A DNA stretch of 15,422 nucleotides from Hadesarchaea archaeon (GCA_030619825.1 JAUXAS010000014.1:1-15422), one strand, 5' to 3'. Counted from the stretch's first letter, positions 2,577-8,766 are shown. The notes: generated by a model not told the origin, from the sequence alone. Numbers and translations: made by a program.

Positions 2577-3002
2577 TTACACCACGGTGGATGCTATCCC
2601 AGCGACTCTCGGCCACCGCTCGGCAGCCTCGCGGGCCATGGGACCCTTTATTTCTGATCCGCGGGGGGCCCCCTCGGGGGTTATCAGGGCGGCCGCGTTG
2701 TCATCAAATTTTATGCGCATGCCATCGGTGCGACGGTACTCCTTGCGCTGTCGGATAACGATCGCGCGGACGATCTGCTTTCGAAGCTCGGGCTTGCCCT
2801 TTTTTACTGAGGCGACGATATGATCGCCCACACCGGCCTTGGCCAGGCGCCTGCGCCTGCCATGATAACCGGCGACGCTCACAATCTGCAGCTCCTTGGC
2901 CCCCGTGTTGTCAGCGCAGACGAGTCGCGCCCCAATCGGTAGTGCCCGTGTGGGCGCCACCGCGGCCACACCTATCGAAATGCCGATACCTTTCTTTCCC
3001 AT
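2577..3002 (-). CDS. rpl14: 50S ribosomal protein L14 (uL14)
   Basis: [10 protein letters not shown]...AGVGD...[12 protein letters not shown]...[19 protein letters not shown]...[17 protein letters not shown]. Confidence 0.97.
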
Positions 3003-3050
3003 GCTAAGCCCCCAGCTTCTGCGCGACGACGAACGATTTGATCTTGCTCA
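3003..3050 (-). repeat. Direct repeat, downstream copy: displaced, degenerate 3' end of rps17 (att-like)
   Basis: gctaagcccccagcttctgcgcgacgacgaacgatttgatcttgctca matches 8448-8495 at 44/48. On the minus strand it reads (L)[14 protein letters not shown] versus S17 [15 protein letters not shown]. It abuts the L14 ATG (TAG-C-ATG). Confidence 0.95.
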
Positions 3051-3095
3051 AACTATCGGTCAAGTTATCCCACCATTCCCTATTGGGAGGTACTG

Positions 3096-3115
3096 ATATT
3101 TAATTAAGGATTTCG
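3096..3115 (-). promoter_or_regulatory. Putative BRE/TATA promoter for L14 and downstream genes
   Basis: Minus strand CGAAATCC-TTAATTAAATAT in the AT-rich spacer about 100 nt upstream of the L14 ATG. Confidence 0.45.
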
Positions 3116-3132
3116 AATGGTTCTGCGGGTGG

Positions 3133-3159
3133 CCAAGGCAAGCAACATTTCAGCCTTGG
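3133..3159. other. Stem-loop just downstream of the glycerate kinase stop (possible 3' end or processing signal)
   Basis: CCAAGGC-N13-GCCTTGG, a perfect 7-bp stem; no clear U-tract. Confidence 0.3.
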
Positions 3160-3163
3160 GACA

Positions 3164-4543
3164 TCAAGTCAGAATCAAGCATGCTATATCCATAACATTT
3201 GTTCTAGTAGGTCCTGTTATCAAGAGGTCCCCAATCTCTTTAAAGAAGCTGTGAGAGTCATTTCGCTCGAGATGAAGCACGGGATCGAGTTTAAGGTGCC
3301 TCGCCTTTTCAAGGGTGAAGCTATCCGCGACAGCTCCGGCAGCATCGGTAGGGCCGTCTATGCCGTCCGTGCTGAAGGAGGCTACGGTCGCGTTTCCCAA
3401 GCCCGATATCCCGATTGCGGCACTGAGCACGAGTTCCTGATTGCGCCCGCCTATACCCTCTCCTTTTACCGTCACCGTCGTCTCCCCTCCGGAAATCAGG
3501 AGCGCGGGCCTTGATACAGGCTTGCTTGCTTCTATCACACCTTTCGCAATAGTGGCAAGATGTGCGCCGACCTCCCTCGCTTCGCCCTGCATGGTTGTCG
3601 TGAGTATCGAAACGTTAAAGCCATGAGATTTTCCGACCTCCATAGCTGCTCTGATCGCGTCCGCATTACTCGCTATGATCTCATAGAATGTGTTCAGAAA
3701 ATATTTCCCCCCGGGTTTTGGTGTTTCGGGCACCTTTTCTTCTGCCCCCTTTTTTAAGTGTTTTAAAATGTTTTTCGGCGCCTTCTCAATGAGCCCATAT
3801 TTCTCGATTACTGCCAGTGCATCTGAAAATGTCATCGGATCAGGATAGGTCGGGCCGCTCGCGATGGTATCCAACCTATCCCCGACCACATCCGAGATGA
3901 GCAGGGTGATGACTCTCGCGGGATGGGCTGCTTTGGCCAGCTGGCCGCCCTTTATCCTAGAAAGGTGTTTCCTGACGGCATTCACCTCTTGGATCATCGC
4001 CCCGCTTTTGAGGAGCAATTGGGTTGTTTCCCGCAATTCATCGAGAGAAATCCCCTCCGCAGGGAGAGTGATAAGGGCCGAGCCGCCCCCGCTCAAGAGA
4101 CACACGACGAGGTCCTGAGGCTCGAGGTCGCTAACGAGATTGATCATCTCTTCAGCGCCCTTTACTCCCGCTCTAGTGGGGAGGGGGTGGCCAGCTTCGA
4201 CGAGCTTGATCTTTCTCGTTCGATATACCGATGCCGTGCCCTCGGGGACGTTGACCACGCCGCTCGTGATCCTGTCTCCAAATATCTCCTCAAACACTTC
4301 AGCCATATTCCCGCTCGCCTTCCCACCCCCCACCACGATGATCTTTCCAACCTCTGAAAGGTCAAGCTCGTAAGTTCCAATTTTCAGGCATTCCCCATCG
4401 ATTCTCACCCGACTCCGCATTTTGGAAGAGGGATCGGCGGATTCGATCGCCTTGTTTACAAGCTCGATGAGGATTTGCCTCGCTCGCCGAAGTTCAGGGG
4501 TTTTGGCGTTGTCGAGCAATTGCTTCTCGTTTTTAATCGACAT
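3164..4543 (-). CDS. Glycerate 2-kinase, MOFRL/TtuD (class II glycerate kinase) family
   Basis: Motifs VVGGGKA, EAGHPLP, LLSGGGSAL, NAVRKHLSRIKGG, ISDVVGD...IASGPT, SGGETTV, GGRNQE, TDGIDGPTDAAGA, TGPTRTNVMD. Confidence 0.93.
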   Translation of the reverse strand: MSIKNEKQLLDNAKTPELRRARQILIELVNKAIESADPSSKMRSRVRIDGECLKIGTYELDLSEVGKIIVVGGGKASGNMAEVFEEIFGDRITSGVVNVPEGTASVYRTRKIKLVEAGHPLPTRAGVKGAEEMINLVSDLEPQDLVVCLLSGGGSALITLPAEGISLDELRETTQLLLKSGAMIQEVNAVRKHLSRIKGGQLAKAAHPARVITLLISDVVGDRLDTIASGPTYPDPMTFSDALAVIEKYGLIEKAPKNILKHLKKGAEEKVPETPKPGGKYFLNTFYEIIASNADAIRAAMEVGKSHGFNVSILTTTMQGEAREVGAHLATIAKGVIEASKPVSRPALLISGGETTVTVKGEGIGGRNQELVLSAAIGISGLGNATVASFSTDGIDGPTDAAGAVADSFTLEKARHLKLDPVLHLERNDSHSFFKEIGDLLITGPTRTNVMDIACLILT

Positions 4544-4632
4544 CTGCTCACACTTGCAATATTTGAGCTAAGTTAAATAGAAATGAGGTGTTGATGAAAT
4601 GAGAAATTTCTTAAACGAACAGATTTTCCTTA

Positions 4633-6183
4633 CTACCTTGGTTGGATCCCTATCTTTGGTTTCTTGAAAATTTTTTCATCTATGACTTTAAGTTCGCTCG
4701 AGACGGTTGGAGAAAAATCCATTTTATTGAGGATATCCCTTTCCAAATCGACTCCAGGCGCGATTTCCTCTAACACGAGGCCGTTTTTACCGAGCCTGAA
4801 AACGGCCCTCTCGGTGATGTATAAAACTTCCTTTCCGAGCTTCCTCGCGTACTCGCCGCTGAACGTGATGTGCTCTACGTTTTTCACAAATTTCTTGACC
4901 GATCCATCTTGCAAAATTTTCAATCTCCCACCACCGACTTCTATTTGAAGGCCCTTCGCGGTTAAGGTCCCGCAAAAGACGACTTTTTTGGCATTCTGAG
5001 TGATATCGATAAAACCACCACAACCTGCGAACCTCCCACCAAATTTGCTCACGTTGACATTTCCCTTTTCGTCAACTTGGGCCATACCCAAAAAGCTCAA
5101 GTCCAGTCCTCCCCCCTGATAGAAATCGAATTGATATGGTTGATCGATGAGCGCTTCGTAGTTTATTCCAACCCCGAAATCCAAACCAGAAAGGGGGACA
5201 CCACCTATCACACCTGACTCGACCGTCAGCGTGAATTTTTCGTAAACGTTTTCCTCAATTGCGACATTGGCGACCTCTGTTGCCATCCCGATACCAAGAT
5301 TTATAATATCTCCGGATTTTATTTCCATAGCCGCCCTCCTCCCAATGACTTTTCTCTCGTTGAGCGGCCTAGGTTCAACCTTAGAGGGAGGAATTATCGT
5401 TTCGCCGCTGATCGCTGGATTATAAGATTCACGAACAGTTTGCCACCCGTACTCGGGTTTCGAAGCTACTACAACGTAGTCTACGAGAATACCCGGAATT
5501 TCAACCTTCCTGCTTGGTAGGGATTTAGTAACCTTTTCCACTTGAACGGCCACGGTCCCTCCGCAATTTTTTGTCGCTTGAGCTATGGATAGGTTTTCTA
5601 GGGTCACCCCTTCCTTTTCCATCGATATGTTGCCCTTTTCATCCGAAGTTGTTCCGCGGATTAAAGCAAAATCTACGGGGAAAGTTTTGTAACTCAGATA
5701 TTCTTTGCCATCGATCTCGATCAGTTTGACCATATCTTCCTCTTTCTTGGTGATATCGTTTACTTTACCTCCTTCGACTCGAGGATCTACAAACGTGTAC
5801 AAACCTGTGTGCGTTATCAGATATGGCCTCTTTGCGGCAATATCCCTAAATAATTGAGAAATCACACCTTGTGGAAAGCAGTAGGCGATAACTTTGTTAT
5901 TCATTATCAGTTCACTTGTCAACGGGGCTTTTCCGGAATGAGTAAATATCAATTTTTTAATAAGATGTTCAATACCCAGGAGATCGAATCCCACTTCTTT
6001 TCCCCCGGACTGGCCCGCAGGCTGAACGATCGTCAGATCTCTCGGTTTACCCGTTTTGAGAAATCTGTTCCTTAATGCGTAAAAGAGTTCAAATGGAAGA
6101 TTAGTCGTTGTGAAACCGCCAGTCGCAACTGTATCTCCATCCTTTATGTGATTAATTGCTTCCTCGGCCGTCGCTACCTTCAT
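4633..6183 (-). CDS. Family I acyl-CoA:carboxylate CoA-transferase, fused alpha/beta (YdiF / propionate CoA-transferase type)
   Basis: IKDGDTVATGGF, PQGVISQLFRDIAA, GLYTFVDPR, INLGIGM, TVESG (catalytic Glu motif), QFDFYQGGGLD, NVNVSKFG, YITERAVF, EIAPGVDLERDIL. Confidence 0.92.
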   Translation of the reverse strand: MKVATAEEAINHIKDGDTVATGGFTTTNLPFELFYALRNRFLKTGKPRDLTIVQPAGQSGGKEVGFDLLGIEHLIKKLIFTHSGKAPLTSELIMNNKVIAYCFPQGVISQLFRDIAAKRPYLITHTGLYTFVDPRVEGGKVNDITKKEEDMVKLIEIDGKEYLSYKTFPVDFALIRGTTSDEKGNISMEKEGVTLENLSIAQATKNCGGTVAVQVEKVTKSLPSRKVEIPGILVDYVVVASKPEYGWQTVRESYNPAISGETIIPPSKVEPRPLNERKVIGRRAAMEIKSGDIINLGIGMATEVANVAIEENVYEKFTLTVESGVIGGVPLSGLDFGVGINYEALIDQPYQFDFYQGGGLDLSFLGMAQVDEKGNVNVSKFGGRFAGCGGFIDITQNAKKVVFCGTLTAKGLQIEVGGGRLKILQDGSVKKFVKNVEHITFSGEYARKLGKEVLYITERAVFRLGKNGLVLEEIAPGVDLERDILNKMDFSPTVSSELKVIDEKIFKKPKIGIQPR

Positions 6184-6217
6184 CTTCGACCCCGAATCTT
6201 ACCTTTTTGCTATTTTT

Positions 6218-7183
6218 CTAAACGTATTCTCCGGCACTTATGTTTATCAACTGTCCGGTTATGTAACTCCCTTCGGTCGCCAAAAACGCTACCAACTTCG
6301 CGACTTCCTCCGGTTCCCCTCTCCTACCAAGCGGAATTTTTGATAACCTATCACGGAGCATGCCCTGGGGCATGGCATCGGTCATCCTAGTTTTTATGCA
6401 ACCGGGTAATACTGCATTGCAAAGTATGTTGTACTGCGCATACTCCAGCGCGACCGTCTTTGTAAGTGAATTTACCCCTCCTTTCGCTGCCGCATAGTTT
6501 GCCTGCCCCGTGGCTCCATCGATGGCGCTCATGGAGCTTACGTTTACTATATTTCCCCCGCCCTGCTGGATCATGTAAGGTAGCACTGCCCTAGTGCAGT
6601 TATAAGTTCCAGTCAGATCTACATCGATGACCCTTTGCCACTGCTCTGGAGCCATGTTGACGAGAAGCTTATCTATGTTCATGCCGGCATTATTCACCAA
6701 AACGTCCACTCTGCCCAACTTCTCCACGATTTCCTTCACCATCTTCTCGACTTCCTCGTATTTTGAGACATCGCCCTTGATGAAGATCGCCTCCCTGCCG
6801 CCTTTTTTGATTTCCTCCATAGCTTTCACTCCTTCATCCGGCAAGTCGTGAAAGGCATTCATTACGATGTTAAAACCTCTTTTGGCCAACTCCAAAGCTA
6901 TCGCTTTGCCTATCCCCCTGCTAGCACCCGTAATTAACGCGACTTTGCTGACCTCCTTTTTCTCCTTTATCTCAGGAACGAAGAAGTTGAATTCCCCATA
7001 GTCTGTTACCCTCTTCTCGATTCTCCCCTCCATCCCTACCTTCAAAATGTTGTAGTGCTCATCCTCTATCCTGACCAACTGACGTTTTCCTTTCTCGTCT
7101 TCAACGATTCCGGATTTCGTGGACTTTTTATAAGGAGGCGTTGGGACGGTCACATCCGTATAACTGATTAATTTTACCTTCAT
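6218..7183 (-). CDS. FabG/PhaB-like 3-oxoacyl-CoA reductase (SDR) with a ~75-aa N-terminal extension resembling a DUF35 OB-fold
   Basis: SDR motifs TGASRGIG, LVNNAG, NVSS, GQANYAAAK, PGCIKTRMT, IPLGRRGEPEEVA. Extension KLISYTDVTVPTPPY...GIVEDEKGKRQLVRI...LKVGMEGRIE. The ATG lies 2 nt after the thiolase stop with a GAGGT SD. The OB-fold call is less certain than the SDR call. Confidence 0.88.
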   Translation of the reverse strand: MKVKLISYTDVTVPTPPYKKSTKSGIVEDEKGKRQLVRIEDEHYNILKVGMEGRIEKRVTDYGEFNFFVPEIKEKKEVSKVALITGASRGIGKAIALELAKRGFNIVMNAFHDLPDEGVKAMEEIKKGGREAIFIKGDVSKYEEVEKMVKEIVEKLGRVDVLVNNAGMNIDKLLVNMAPEQWQRVIDVDLTGTYNCTRAVLPYMIQQGGGNIVNVSSMSAIDGATGQANYAAAKGGVNSLTKTVALEYAQYNILCNAVLPGCIKTRMTDAMPQGMLRDRLSKIPLGRRGEPEEVAKLVAFLATEGSYITGQLINISAGEYV

Positions 7184-7185
7184 CT

Positions 7186-8331
7186 TTACCTCTCCAATAT
7201 CGAAACTATCGCAACGGAACCGGTCCCGCCGTGTCCTTCGATTATGGCGGTTTTTCGATCCGGAACCTGTCTCTCACCGGCTTCTCCTCGGAGTTGCAAG
7301 AACATTTCCACCATGGTTCCCACGTGTGTCGCACCCACGGGATGTCCTTTGGCTTTGAGCCCGCCACTCACATTCACGGGGAGAGACCCGTCGAACATGA
7401 CCACGCCCTCTCTGACCAATTTGGCGCCTTCACCTTTCTTGGCAAGACCTAGCGCTTCGTAACACATGGGCTCAACTGGAGTGAAAGCATCGTGGACTTC
7501 TACGATATCTACATCTTTTGGACTCTTCCCCGCTTCTTTGTAAGCCTGATCCGCTGCTCTTTTCGAGCAAAGTAAAAACGTTGGATCCTCCCTCTCTATT
7601 GCCAACAGGTAATCGTGGGCCACGCCCATTCCTTTGATAAAGACCGGCGTGTCGGTATACTTCTTCGGATCGGCGCTCAGCAAGACAGAAGCGGCGCCAT
7701 CACTGATCGTGGAGCAATGGAACAATCTGATCGGATCGGCGATCATTCTCGAGTTCATCACTCCCTCTTTCGTGATATCTTTGTGGAAATGAGCCCACGG
7801 GTTTCTGAATGCATTTTTATGGTTCTTAACCGAGATATCCGCCCAGTCATCTTCCGTGACGTCATACTTGTTGGCGTACAGTCTTATCAGCAAGGCGTAT
7901 GCGCCGGGTTGGGTTATTCCGTACTTTCGCTCCTCGGGAGAGGACCCGTGAGTCAAAAATTCTGTGATTCTGTCGATTCCGAACTTGTTCATCTTCTCAA
8001 AGCCCACGACAAGGACGTTCTTCGCCTCCCCCCTCTCGATCATATTCTTAGCTCGATAGATCGCTATGCTCCCGCTCACGCAGGCCGATTCAACTTTGAA
8101 ACCATAGGCGTCGGGGTTTCCCAAATATTCCCATGCCAAAGTTCCAGTTTGGTGTTGTTCGGAAAAGGCATTGTCTACACAACTCACGATGACACAGTCT
8201 ATCTCTTTGGGAGAAATGCCATTCTCAACGTTTTTCAAACAGCCGTCCATCGCCTCCTTGATGAGATCTGGAGTATCTTGTTCTAACACGCCAAATTTCG
8301 TGTGTCCGTAAGAGACAATTCCCACTTCCAT
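7186..8331 (-). CDS. Archaeal-type (SCP-x-like) thiolase / acetyl-CoA C-acyltransferase
   Basis: VGIVSYGHTKFG, KVESACVSGS (nucleophile Cys), VLVVGFEKM, SVKNHKNAFRNPWAHF, CSTISDGAAS, VEVHDAFT, VNVSGGLKAKGHPVGAT, QLRGEAGERQV. Confidence 0.93.
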   Translation of the reverse strand: MEVGIVSYGHTKFGVLEQDTPDLIKEAMDGCLKNVENGISPKEIDCVIVSCVDNAFSEQHQTGTLAWEYLGNPDAYGFKVESACVSGSIAIYRAKNMIERGEAKNVLVVGFEKMNKFGIDRITEFLTHGSSPEERKYGITQPGAYALLIRLYANKYDVTEDDWADISVKNHKNAFRNPWAHFHKDITKEGVMNSRMIADPIRLFHCSTISDGAASVLLSADPKKYTDTPVFIKGMGVAHDYLLAIEREDPTFLLCSKRAADQAYKEAGKSPKDVDIVEVHDAFTPVEPMCYEALGLAKKGEGAKLVREGVVMFDGSLPVNVSGGLKAKGHPVGATHVGTMVEMFLQLRGEAGERQVPDRKTAIIEGHGGTGSVAIVSILER

Positions 8332-8360
8332 TCGATCGCCTTCATAAACATTGAGGACTG

Positions 8361-8378
8361 GTTATAAATAATTTCCTA
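8361..8378 (-). promoter_or_regulatory. BRE/TATA promoter of the inserted thiolase operon
   Basis: Minus strand TAGGAAATTA-TTTATAAC, with the TATA about 30 nt upstream of the thiolase ATG and an SD-like AAGGCGA in between. Confidence 0.6.
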
Positions 8379-8447
8379 ATTCAGTTACAAGTTGGTCTAT
8401 GTCTTTAGTAATAGTCGTCTCTCCTACATACGTTCAGAGATACTCCC

Positions 8448-8495
8448 GCTAGGCCCCCAGCTTCTGTACGACGACGAACGATTTGGTCTTGCTCA
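8448..8495 (-). repeat. Direct repeat, upstream copy: functional 3' end of rps17
   Basis: gctaggcccccagcttctgtacgacgacgaacgatttggtcttgctca; 4 mismatches to 3003-3050. Confidence 0.95.
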
Positions 8496-8766
8496 GCCGC
8501 CGGCACTCCATAATTTTCACCCTATCCCCAGTGCGAGCGGCGATGCAGGGTGGGTTGTGGGCGTGGAGCTTGGAAGTGCGGCGCTCATATCGCTCGTATT
8601 TCGGAATCACCTGCATGCGCTCCATCTCGATCGTGACCGCGCGCGACATCTTATCGCTCACCACGACACCTTCGAAGGTTCTGCCTCGCACTGAGAGCGT
8701 GCCATGGAAGGGGCACTTTGGATCGGAGCATCGCTCCTTCGGGGGTTTAATTCCCATGCCTACCAT
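8449..8766 (-). CDS. rps17: 30S ribosomal protein S17 (uS17)
   Basis: [17 protein letters not shown]...GVVVSDKM...[20 protein letters not shown]...[20 protein letters not shown]. Confidence 0.97.

Follow-up and report, generated by a model that had tools for sequence, protein, structure and literature searches.

Insertion with long target duplication is known in bacteria (Furuta, Abe and Kobayashi 2010, PMC2853133). In streptococci, integration takes place at the 3' ends of the ribosomal-protein genes rpsI, rpmG and rplL, and CIMEs of 1.2-13 kb are described (PMC7563491). In archaea, 14 of 68 thaumarchaeal elements sit in the 3' ends of protein genes (PMC6563490), and att lengths range from 8 to more than 100 bp (PMC8371274). 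Furthermore, the integrase of pTN3, which has low specificity, can act on short segments (104 bp) in a manner resembling homologous recombination, as shown for Thermococcus inversions (PMC5495485). The locus analysed below, in a ribosomal protein operon of Hadesarchaea, looks like an unusual target, uS17, for a known kind of scar and not like a still-mobile element.

The insert between uS17 and uL14

The window (the whole stretch of DNA analysed, 15,422 nt of the Hadesarchaea genome G000) carries a pair of direct repeats, 3003-3050 and 8448-8495, identical at 44 of 48 positions. The pair scores 69.8 bits, against 34.6 for the best pair in 20 Markov shuffles of the window. One copy forms the end of an intact uS17 gene (8766-8449) while the other directly adjoins the uL14 ATG at 3002; the uS17-uL14 spacing in the genus is 1 nt. 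The 5397 bp lying between the repeats hold four metabolic genes, encoding a thiolase, an SDR/FabG reductase, a family-I CoA-transferase and a MOFRL glycerate kinase, in none of which profile searches detect a recombinase domain. An earlier note, made from the sequence alone, had described the 48-bp repeat, the placing of its two copies and the recombinase-free metabolic cargo, and all three are borne out. uS17, the four cassette genes and uL14 are all on the minus strand, and GC content is about 0.6 on the flanks versus 0.42-0.56 in the island. The features are the following, numbered from the first letter of the window:

8449..8766, minus strand: intact uS17 (rps17), 105 aa (TIGR03630, 147.6 bits, cut-off 105)
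8448..8495, minus strand: upstream repeat copy, which forms the final uS17 codons with the stop and is constrained by coding (mean pairwise divergence 0.038)
8433..8447, minus strand: probable remnant, presumably collapsed by deletion, of a duplicated uL14 5' stub that still has about 27 nt in G003
8362..8376, minus strand: putative cassette promoter before the thiolase gene, judged from sequence, a site that is TATA-like by the archaeal consensus
7186..8331, minus strand: thiolase-domain protein, 381 aa (PF00108, PF22691; PRK06064-like, below cut-off)
6218..7183, minus strand: FabG-type ketoacyl reductase with a 76-aa N-terminal extension (domain search)
4633..6183, minus strand: fused family-I CoA-transferase, 516 aa (PF01144; FadX-like, below cut-off)
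3164..4543, minus strand: MOFRL-family glycerate kinase, 459 aa (PF13660, PF05161)
3096..3116, minus strand: putative replacement promoter, a BRE/TATA-like site that precedes uL14 by about 100 nt and can be aligned across 6/6 filled genomes
3046..3069, minus strand: 12-nt tandem duplication at the right junction (present in G000, G003, G012 and G013; absent from G001 and G010)
3003..3050, minus strand: displaced uS17 tail, which no longer codes, is decaying and serves as the uL14 5' leader (divergence and substitution counts)
2577..3002, minus strand: intact uL14 (rpl14), 141 aa (TIGR03673, 200.2 bits, cut-off 191.45)

A single old insertion, its scars and its mosaic cargo

A uS17 match was obtained in 65 of 66 genomes of the phylum, and in 60 of these 65 it lies within 54 bp of a uL14 match, the two genes being contiguous and the site empty. 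This supports the true insertion proposed in the earlier note. The two genes are split in five genomes (G000, G001, G003, G010 and G012), and G013, which gave no uS17 match, has the island on the uL14 side; the cassette is thus carried by 6 of the 14 genomes of the genus. These six filled genomes are monophyletic on the flanking genes (UFBoot 100 for the concatenated, 94 for the downstream and 100 for the upstream genes) in a 19-genome tree, G013 being missing from the upstream-gene tree. None of the 60 empty-site genomes holds other cargo at the junction; of the two outcomes that the earlier note had named for the rps17-rpl14 junction in relatives, the empty site was found and different cargo was not.

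Junctions were also found outside the genome assemblies. All six metagenome matches are filled, the search pattern having been built on the letters of the filled clade and being unable to detect empty sites. Contig L095 covers the entire island, and contigs from run X1 bridge both junctions at depths of 102 and 118, the flanks being at 127-131; X1 is possibly related to the source sample, and the other assemblies give firmer support. No joint skipping the island occurs among the contigs of four runs. A contig of run X12 aligned to the uL14-side copy runs on for 30 letters, 29 of which are those of the uS17 body of the filled clade, versus 25-27 for the uS17 of empty-site genomes. It may represent an empty site in a strain of the filled clade, a sister lineage absent from the sample or a misplaced contig. 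The six-genome clade, the contiguous genes in 60/65 genomes and the independent contigs bridging the junctions together establish one ancestral insertion and no assembly artefact. A chimera could be suspected from the fragmentation of G000 into 96 contigs, but it is refuted, and we consider it practically excluded, by the same junctions in five other genomes, by L095 and by the flank-like depth of the X1 bridges; the earlier note, too, had argued against an artefact.

The scars themselves are informative. In G003, the upstream copy runs past the stop codon and is followed by a degraded duplicate of the initial ~27 nt of uL14, which extends the repeat to 70 bp at 87% identity. Since this copy reaches into the uL14 start, the duplicated block is put at ~76 bp, covering the whole uS17/uL14 junction. 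In the remaining four genomes the sequence after the upstream copy is shorter than in G003, probably as a product of deletion. The mean pairwise distance is 0.146 in the displaced S17 tail, 0.038 in the coding copy and 0.189 over the four-fold sites of uL14; the displaced tail has accumulated 15 non-synonymous versus 4 synonymous changes. Confinement to one clade and decay of the displaced copy at about the neutral rate agree with the old, fixed event previously proposed. Both copies have a Ser codon where all eight empty-site genomes of the genus have Ala, which suggests duplication of resident DNA, whereas one base of the G003 uL14 stub, like the empty-site genomes and unlike the filled clade, points against it.

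The cargo has a wider but patchy distribution. The CoA-transferase was found in 11/66 genomes, five of them filled and six belonging to other genera, and in none of the 8 empty-site genomes of the genus, two of which are 90% and 94% complete. In G016, G040, G050 and G051 the cassette lies amid housekeeping genes (acetyl-CoA synthetase, M29 peptidase, PAC2, ArgRS, in part), and in G015 it has a restriction-modification locus on one side and genes for PIN and transposase proteins on the other. For coaT and gck, G015 branches as sister to the filled genomes (support 100), yet it is more distant on ribosomal genes, which suggests from the trees that the cassette was gained horizontally. The four closest relatives of the FabG-type reductase come from Hadesarchaea archaeon. 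Its 76-aa extension has no Pfam match; an Atlas lead of 0.83 to PF01796 clusters, a lead only, makes it probably a DUF35/ChsH2-type OB fold at that level. Judging from family membership, the cassette likely serves short-chain acyl-CoA or acetoacetyl-CoA turnover and glycerate phosphorylation.

The cassette is also a mosaic that swaps and gains genes. In G001, the island has in addition a serpin gene, then a 90-bp repeat of the 3' end of gck (79% identical to its own gene and 88% to that of G015, from another genus) and a 3' fragment of an aldehyde:ferredoxin oxidoreductase gene. The G010 island has an additional beta-helix gene, and no further S17 copy lies beside the extra genes of either genome. 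In the same way, metagenome contig L096 encodes uL14, uL24 and S4e proteins identical to those of G000 but has divergent coaT and gck ends around an added 2H-phosphoesterase gene, the coaT-gck segment having been replaced. In run X1 this L096-type joint dominates (depth 101.6 versus ~18).

Survival of the split operon and possible routes of insertion

The BRE/TATA-like site upstream of uL14 (distance 0.118), also found in G001 and G010 despite a different upstream gene, could serve as a replacement promoter for uL14 onward. The S17 tail contains a G-rich, Shine-Dalgarno-like run, likely a ribosome-binding site for uL14; no anti-Shine-Dalgarno motif was found in G000. A viable insertion at a 1-nt junction must probably duplicate the S17 tail and either bring a promoter or allow read-through. 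As duplication of the tail is likely needed for survival, the repeat alone cannot demonstrate an att site. Furthermore, in 6/6 filled genomes a frame beginning with a TTG at the junction stays open as far as the former S17 stop beside uL14. This frame could be a relay mini-ORF passing ribosomes to uL14, although the open frame is not significant (probability of no stop by chance 0.50; 15 of 19 changes non-synonymous). In E. coli, 15 nt of an upstream gene are reported to be enough for such a relay (PMC10666635). RNA run X19 covers 9/30 bins (share 0.13, contigs), too thin for a reliable reading of transcription. A scan for sigma-70 promoters and terminators (8 versus 5.4 and 9 versus 6.0 expected) is uninformative for archaea.

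Candidate enzymes are present in the genus but not at the locus. Tyrosine recombinases (PF00589) occur in 11 of its 14 genomes, and the five matches of G000 are all on contigs other than that of the island. A tRNA gene accompanies 7 of 30 integrase loci of the genus, one of them doubtfully (ARAGORN). In the corresponding superoperon of G009, a tRNA-Ser gene is the site of a classical element that has a 69-bp repeat. The rpoD gene, near integrases in G009 and G012, was rejected as a second protein-gene target: a tRNA gene lies between. Serine recombinases (PF00239) were detected in one of five filled genomes (G013) and not in G000. Cas1 is complete in G001 and fragmentary in G000, its matches being on other contigs and none in the island, where domain searches reveal neither casposase nor transposase. 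A casposon or transposon was dismissed, terminal inverted repeats being absent (best local score 6, equalled or exceeded in 493 of 500 shuffles). Domain searches and the ORF lists of relatives also give no recombination or conjugation gene in the island.

The 48-mer, which the earlier note had thought might lead to a recombinase, has no third copy in the 991 kb of G000. Viral contigs contain no exact match to the degenerate S17-tail pattern and no coaT, uS17 or surface-gene anchor locus; 19 matches to the 17-nt promoter motif, none aligning over more than 23 nt, were taken as chance. No integrase-coding element was found at the uS17 site in 66 genomes, six metagenome loci and the viral contigs, a small sample. 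The proposal that rps17 is a recombinase attB is so far unsupported, with a single event, no other cargo, no integrase or remnant, no internal att copy in G001 or G010, no attP-like viral match and a duplication that covers the uL14 start.

Scans for duplicated gene ends, limited by genome fragmentation in both cases, found no genome-wide excess in G000 or G001. Among 952 gene models of G000, uS17 is the sole clear case, while in G001 (937 kb, 870 gene models) cargo is enclosed by a duplicated 3' end in two cases, and a third case concerns a 5' end. One of the two 3' ends is that of a gene for an Ig-rich surface protein of ~900-1100 aa, presumably S-layer-like, a label of our own. At this 3' end, differing integrase-less cassettes are present in G001/G009, G004 and G010 (two in tandem), ending in displaced copies that start within 1-2 nt of one position. 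The site is empty in G002, G003, G006, G007 and G012, no copy was detected at the insert of G011, and a copy bounded at about the same point occurs in G016, a genome of another genus. Pfam assigns nucleotidyltransferase/HEPN and Ig domains, and no recombinase, among the 16 proteins scanned. The surface-gene site is an att-like hotspot in the lineage and makes trans-acting integration plausible. The mobilisation in trans suggested earlier is therefore credible, given that the family has at another protein gene a hotspot with fixed boundaries and no integrase, although uS17 itself lacks the hotspot marks, having one event, one cargo and no tandem copies.

Several routes could have produced such a scar. 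The reading we favour, with in our view about an even chance of being right, is one old insertion that made a long target duplication, involved no recombinase dedicated to the site and survived by means of a promoter-like site. A horizontally acquired thiolase-FabG-CoA-transferase-glycerate-kinase cassette would have entered the uS17/uL14 junction in the ancestor of the clade by short-homology or microhomology recombination (a Campbell-type crossover or a template switch), duplicating ~76 bp. uS17 would have stayed whole, uL14 would have kept an S17 tail with a likely ribosome-binding site, and the end of the insert would have supplied a promoter-like site to the downstream genes. Both non-coding copies would then have decayed, and the cassette would have swapped and gained genes by homologous recombination with copies of other lineages. 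In favour of this reading are the monophyly of the filled genomes, the empty junctions free of other cargo, the reach of the duplication into uL14 in G003, the Ser codon common to both copies, the recombinase-free insert, the extra genes of G001 and G010 that lack S17 copies, the replaced coaT-gck segment of the L096 type and the agreement in size and gene content with PMC2853133. Short-homology recombination, named as an alternative in the earlier note, fits slightly better than the att reading. Against it stand a left boundary that is sharp and common to all filled genomes, the family hotspot, which points to a site-specific process in trans, the rarity of gene-end duplications genome-wide, and both the possible X12 empty site and the single G003 stub base.

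Some of these observations are better accommodated by a CIME-like relic, which we regard as a real though less than even possibility. A tyrosine recombinase, acting in trans or since deleted, would have integrated a circle with the S17/L14 junction as attP by crossover at the 5' edge of the block common to both, and uS17 may have been a secondary site. The geometry equals that of elements in protein-gene 3' ends (PMC6563490, PMC7563491), 48-76 bp is within the reported archaeal att range (PMC8371274), and the tyrosine recombinases of the genus, the tRNA-Ser element of G009, the surface-gene hotspot and the possible X12 empty site all agree with it. It is weakened by the missing hotspot hallmarks at uS17, the lack of viral S17-tail, uS17 or coaT matches, the location of genus integrases with a visible target at tRNAs and the lack of an island-skipping joint in the contigs of four runs. 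A longer segmental duplication or two-step rearrangement, the redundant halves of which were deleted down to stubs, seems improbable. Stubs do shrink between G003 and the others, and the right end in G001 keeps gck and oxidoreductase 3' pieces, but one left boundary is common to 6/6 genomes and 3/3 L14-side metagenome matches, no longer S17 or L14 remnant is seen, and the CoA-transferase, found in none of the eight empty-site genomes of the genus, was not a resident being moved. More speculatively, and in our opinion unlikely, Hadarchaeota could capture integrase-less cassettes through a host recombinase that inserts circles in trans at tRNAs and at fixed protein-gene 3' ends, more than once at the surface-protein gene and a single time each at uS17 and glycerate kinase. 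The island described here would be a product of this kind, locked in by supplying a promoter, and perhaps a relay mini-ORF, to the downstream ribosomal genes. If the trans-acting reading is true, the hotspot offers a testable way for subsurface archaea with small genomes to gain genes.

Comparison with described systems

With a single origin, empty sites in sister species and both scars visible, the locus is a clean, dated case of a highly conserved gene junction broken and rewired in deep-sediment archaea, and the uS17-uL14 split is a clade marker within the genus. It also cautions against taking every duplicated gene tail in a compact operon for an att site, as insertions of other types probably do not survive. 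Searches at the level of titles and abstract openings found no literature on uS17 (rpsQ) as an integration target, and the word "ribosomal" is absent from the main texts of PMC6563490 and PMC8371274.

Archaeal elements, including casposons in ef-2 (PMC6563490, PMC8371274), have in common with the island a 3'-distal target in a housekeeping gene, a preserved frame and the repeat length. They are mobile and carry integrases or casposases, whereas the island has neither, nor terminal inverted repeats. Streptococcal CIMEs (PMC7563491) resemble it in being integrase-less, in size, in metabolic cargo and in their position at the 3' end of a ribosomal-protein gene, with flanking att-like direct repeats and a restored target gene. 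Such CIMEs derive from ICEs or IMEs that still use the same site and are found in tandem with them, whereas no parent element or second occupant is seen at uS17, whose position is mid-operon. CIME accretion, with internal att copies left by tandem integration, is likewise not encountered at the island, including the extra genes of G001 and G010. An activity like that of the pTN3 integrase (PMC5495485), shown for inversions in Thermococcus, is a possible route that would blur the two main readings.

Insertion with long target duplication (PMC2853133) has in common with the island an insert below 20 kb (5397 bp here) with no mobile-element gene, and a direct repeat of more than 30 bp (48 here, ~76 in G003) that is single at the empty site. 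The described class has restriction-modification cargo in bacteria, no archaeal case having survived the screen as reported there, while the uS17 island places metabolic genes inside an essential archaeal operon. The island thus works like the long-target-duplication class but is no restriction-modification instance of it.

A hotspot at a surface-protein gene

Throughout the family, a hotspot occupies the 3' end of one gene, which is large and codes for an Ig-rich surface protein.
G001, contig C6, 8500-9850 (locus L217): hotspot at the surface-protein gene 3' end; further loci, L282, L283, L285 and L318

The cassettes found there, some of them in tandem arrangement, lack an integrase and consist mainly of nucleotidyltransferase/HEPN pairs. 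Every one of them terminates in a displaced copy of the gene end, and the left boundaries of these copies nearly coincide. Five genus genomes hold the hotspot without an insert.

Variation within and beside the metabolic cassette

The following features concern the cassette lying between uS17 and uL14.
Window 6953-7183: reductase N-terminal extension
L096, 1-1100 (counterpart, window 4421-4640 in sequencing run X1): divergent coaT-gck allele
L080, 4761-6900 (G001): serpin gene and the sequences downstream of it
L084, 4171-6084, opposite strand (G010): secreted beta-helix protein, 637 aa

A Pfam search with the reductase extension gave no match, and an Atlas lead, to be taken as a lead only, points to DUF35/ChsH2 OB folds. 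In the allele of L096, a locus whose uL14, uL24 and S4e proteins are identical to those of the source genome, a 2H-phosphoesterase gene is bracketed by divergent ends of coaT and gck; the majority joint in run X1 has this form.

Genes have also been added beyond the glycerate kinase. G001 gained a serpin gene downstream of it, followed by a gck 3'-end copy of foreign appearance; also downstream of the serpin gene are a 16-bp palindrome, which occurs near the G015 cassette too, and an aldehyde:ferredoxin oxidoreductase 3' fragment. The beta-helix gene of G010 lies between gck and the promoter-like site of uL14, with no flanking duplication.

Repeats, duplications and tRNA-associated elements

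L143, 3870-4180 (G049) and L090, 14279 (G016): 16-bp palindrome
G001, contig C11, 54650-55900: gene 5'-end duplication
L090, 17450-17469 (G016): tRNA 3' fragment, 20 bp
L138, 8197-10438 and 12860-14495 (G009); L139, 1-1750 (G012): classical integrase elements

G049 carries three palindrome copies downstream of coaT, where gck is not a neighbour, and G016 a single one upstream of coaT. An 884-aa gene of G001 has its 5' end duplicated over about 100 bp, and an inserted gene of 860 bp lies between the copies. Contigs C14, C55, C64, C66 and C79 of the source genome share an intergenic repeat family with units of 50-130 bp.

The tRNA fragment of G016 lies directly downstream of the cassette glycerate kinase, in inverted orientation relative to a tRNA-Arg 17 kb distant. 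Two tRNA genes within the ribosomal superoperon host classical integrase elements (G009, G012), one of which shows a 69-bp repeat.
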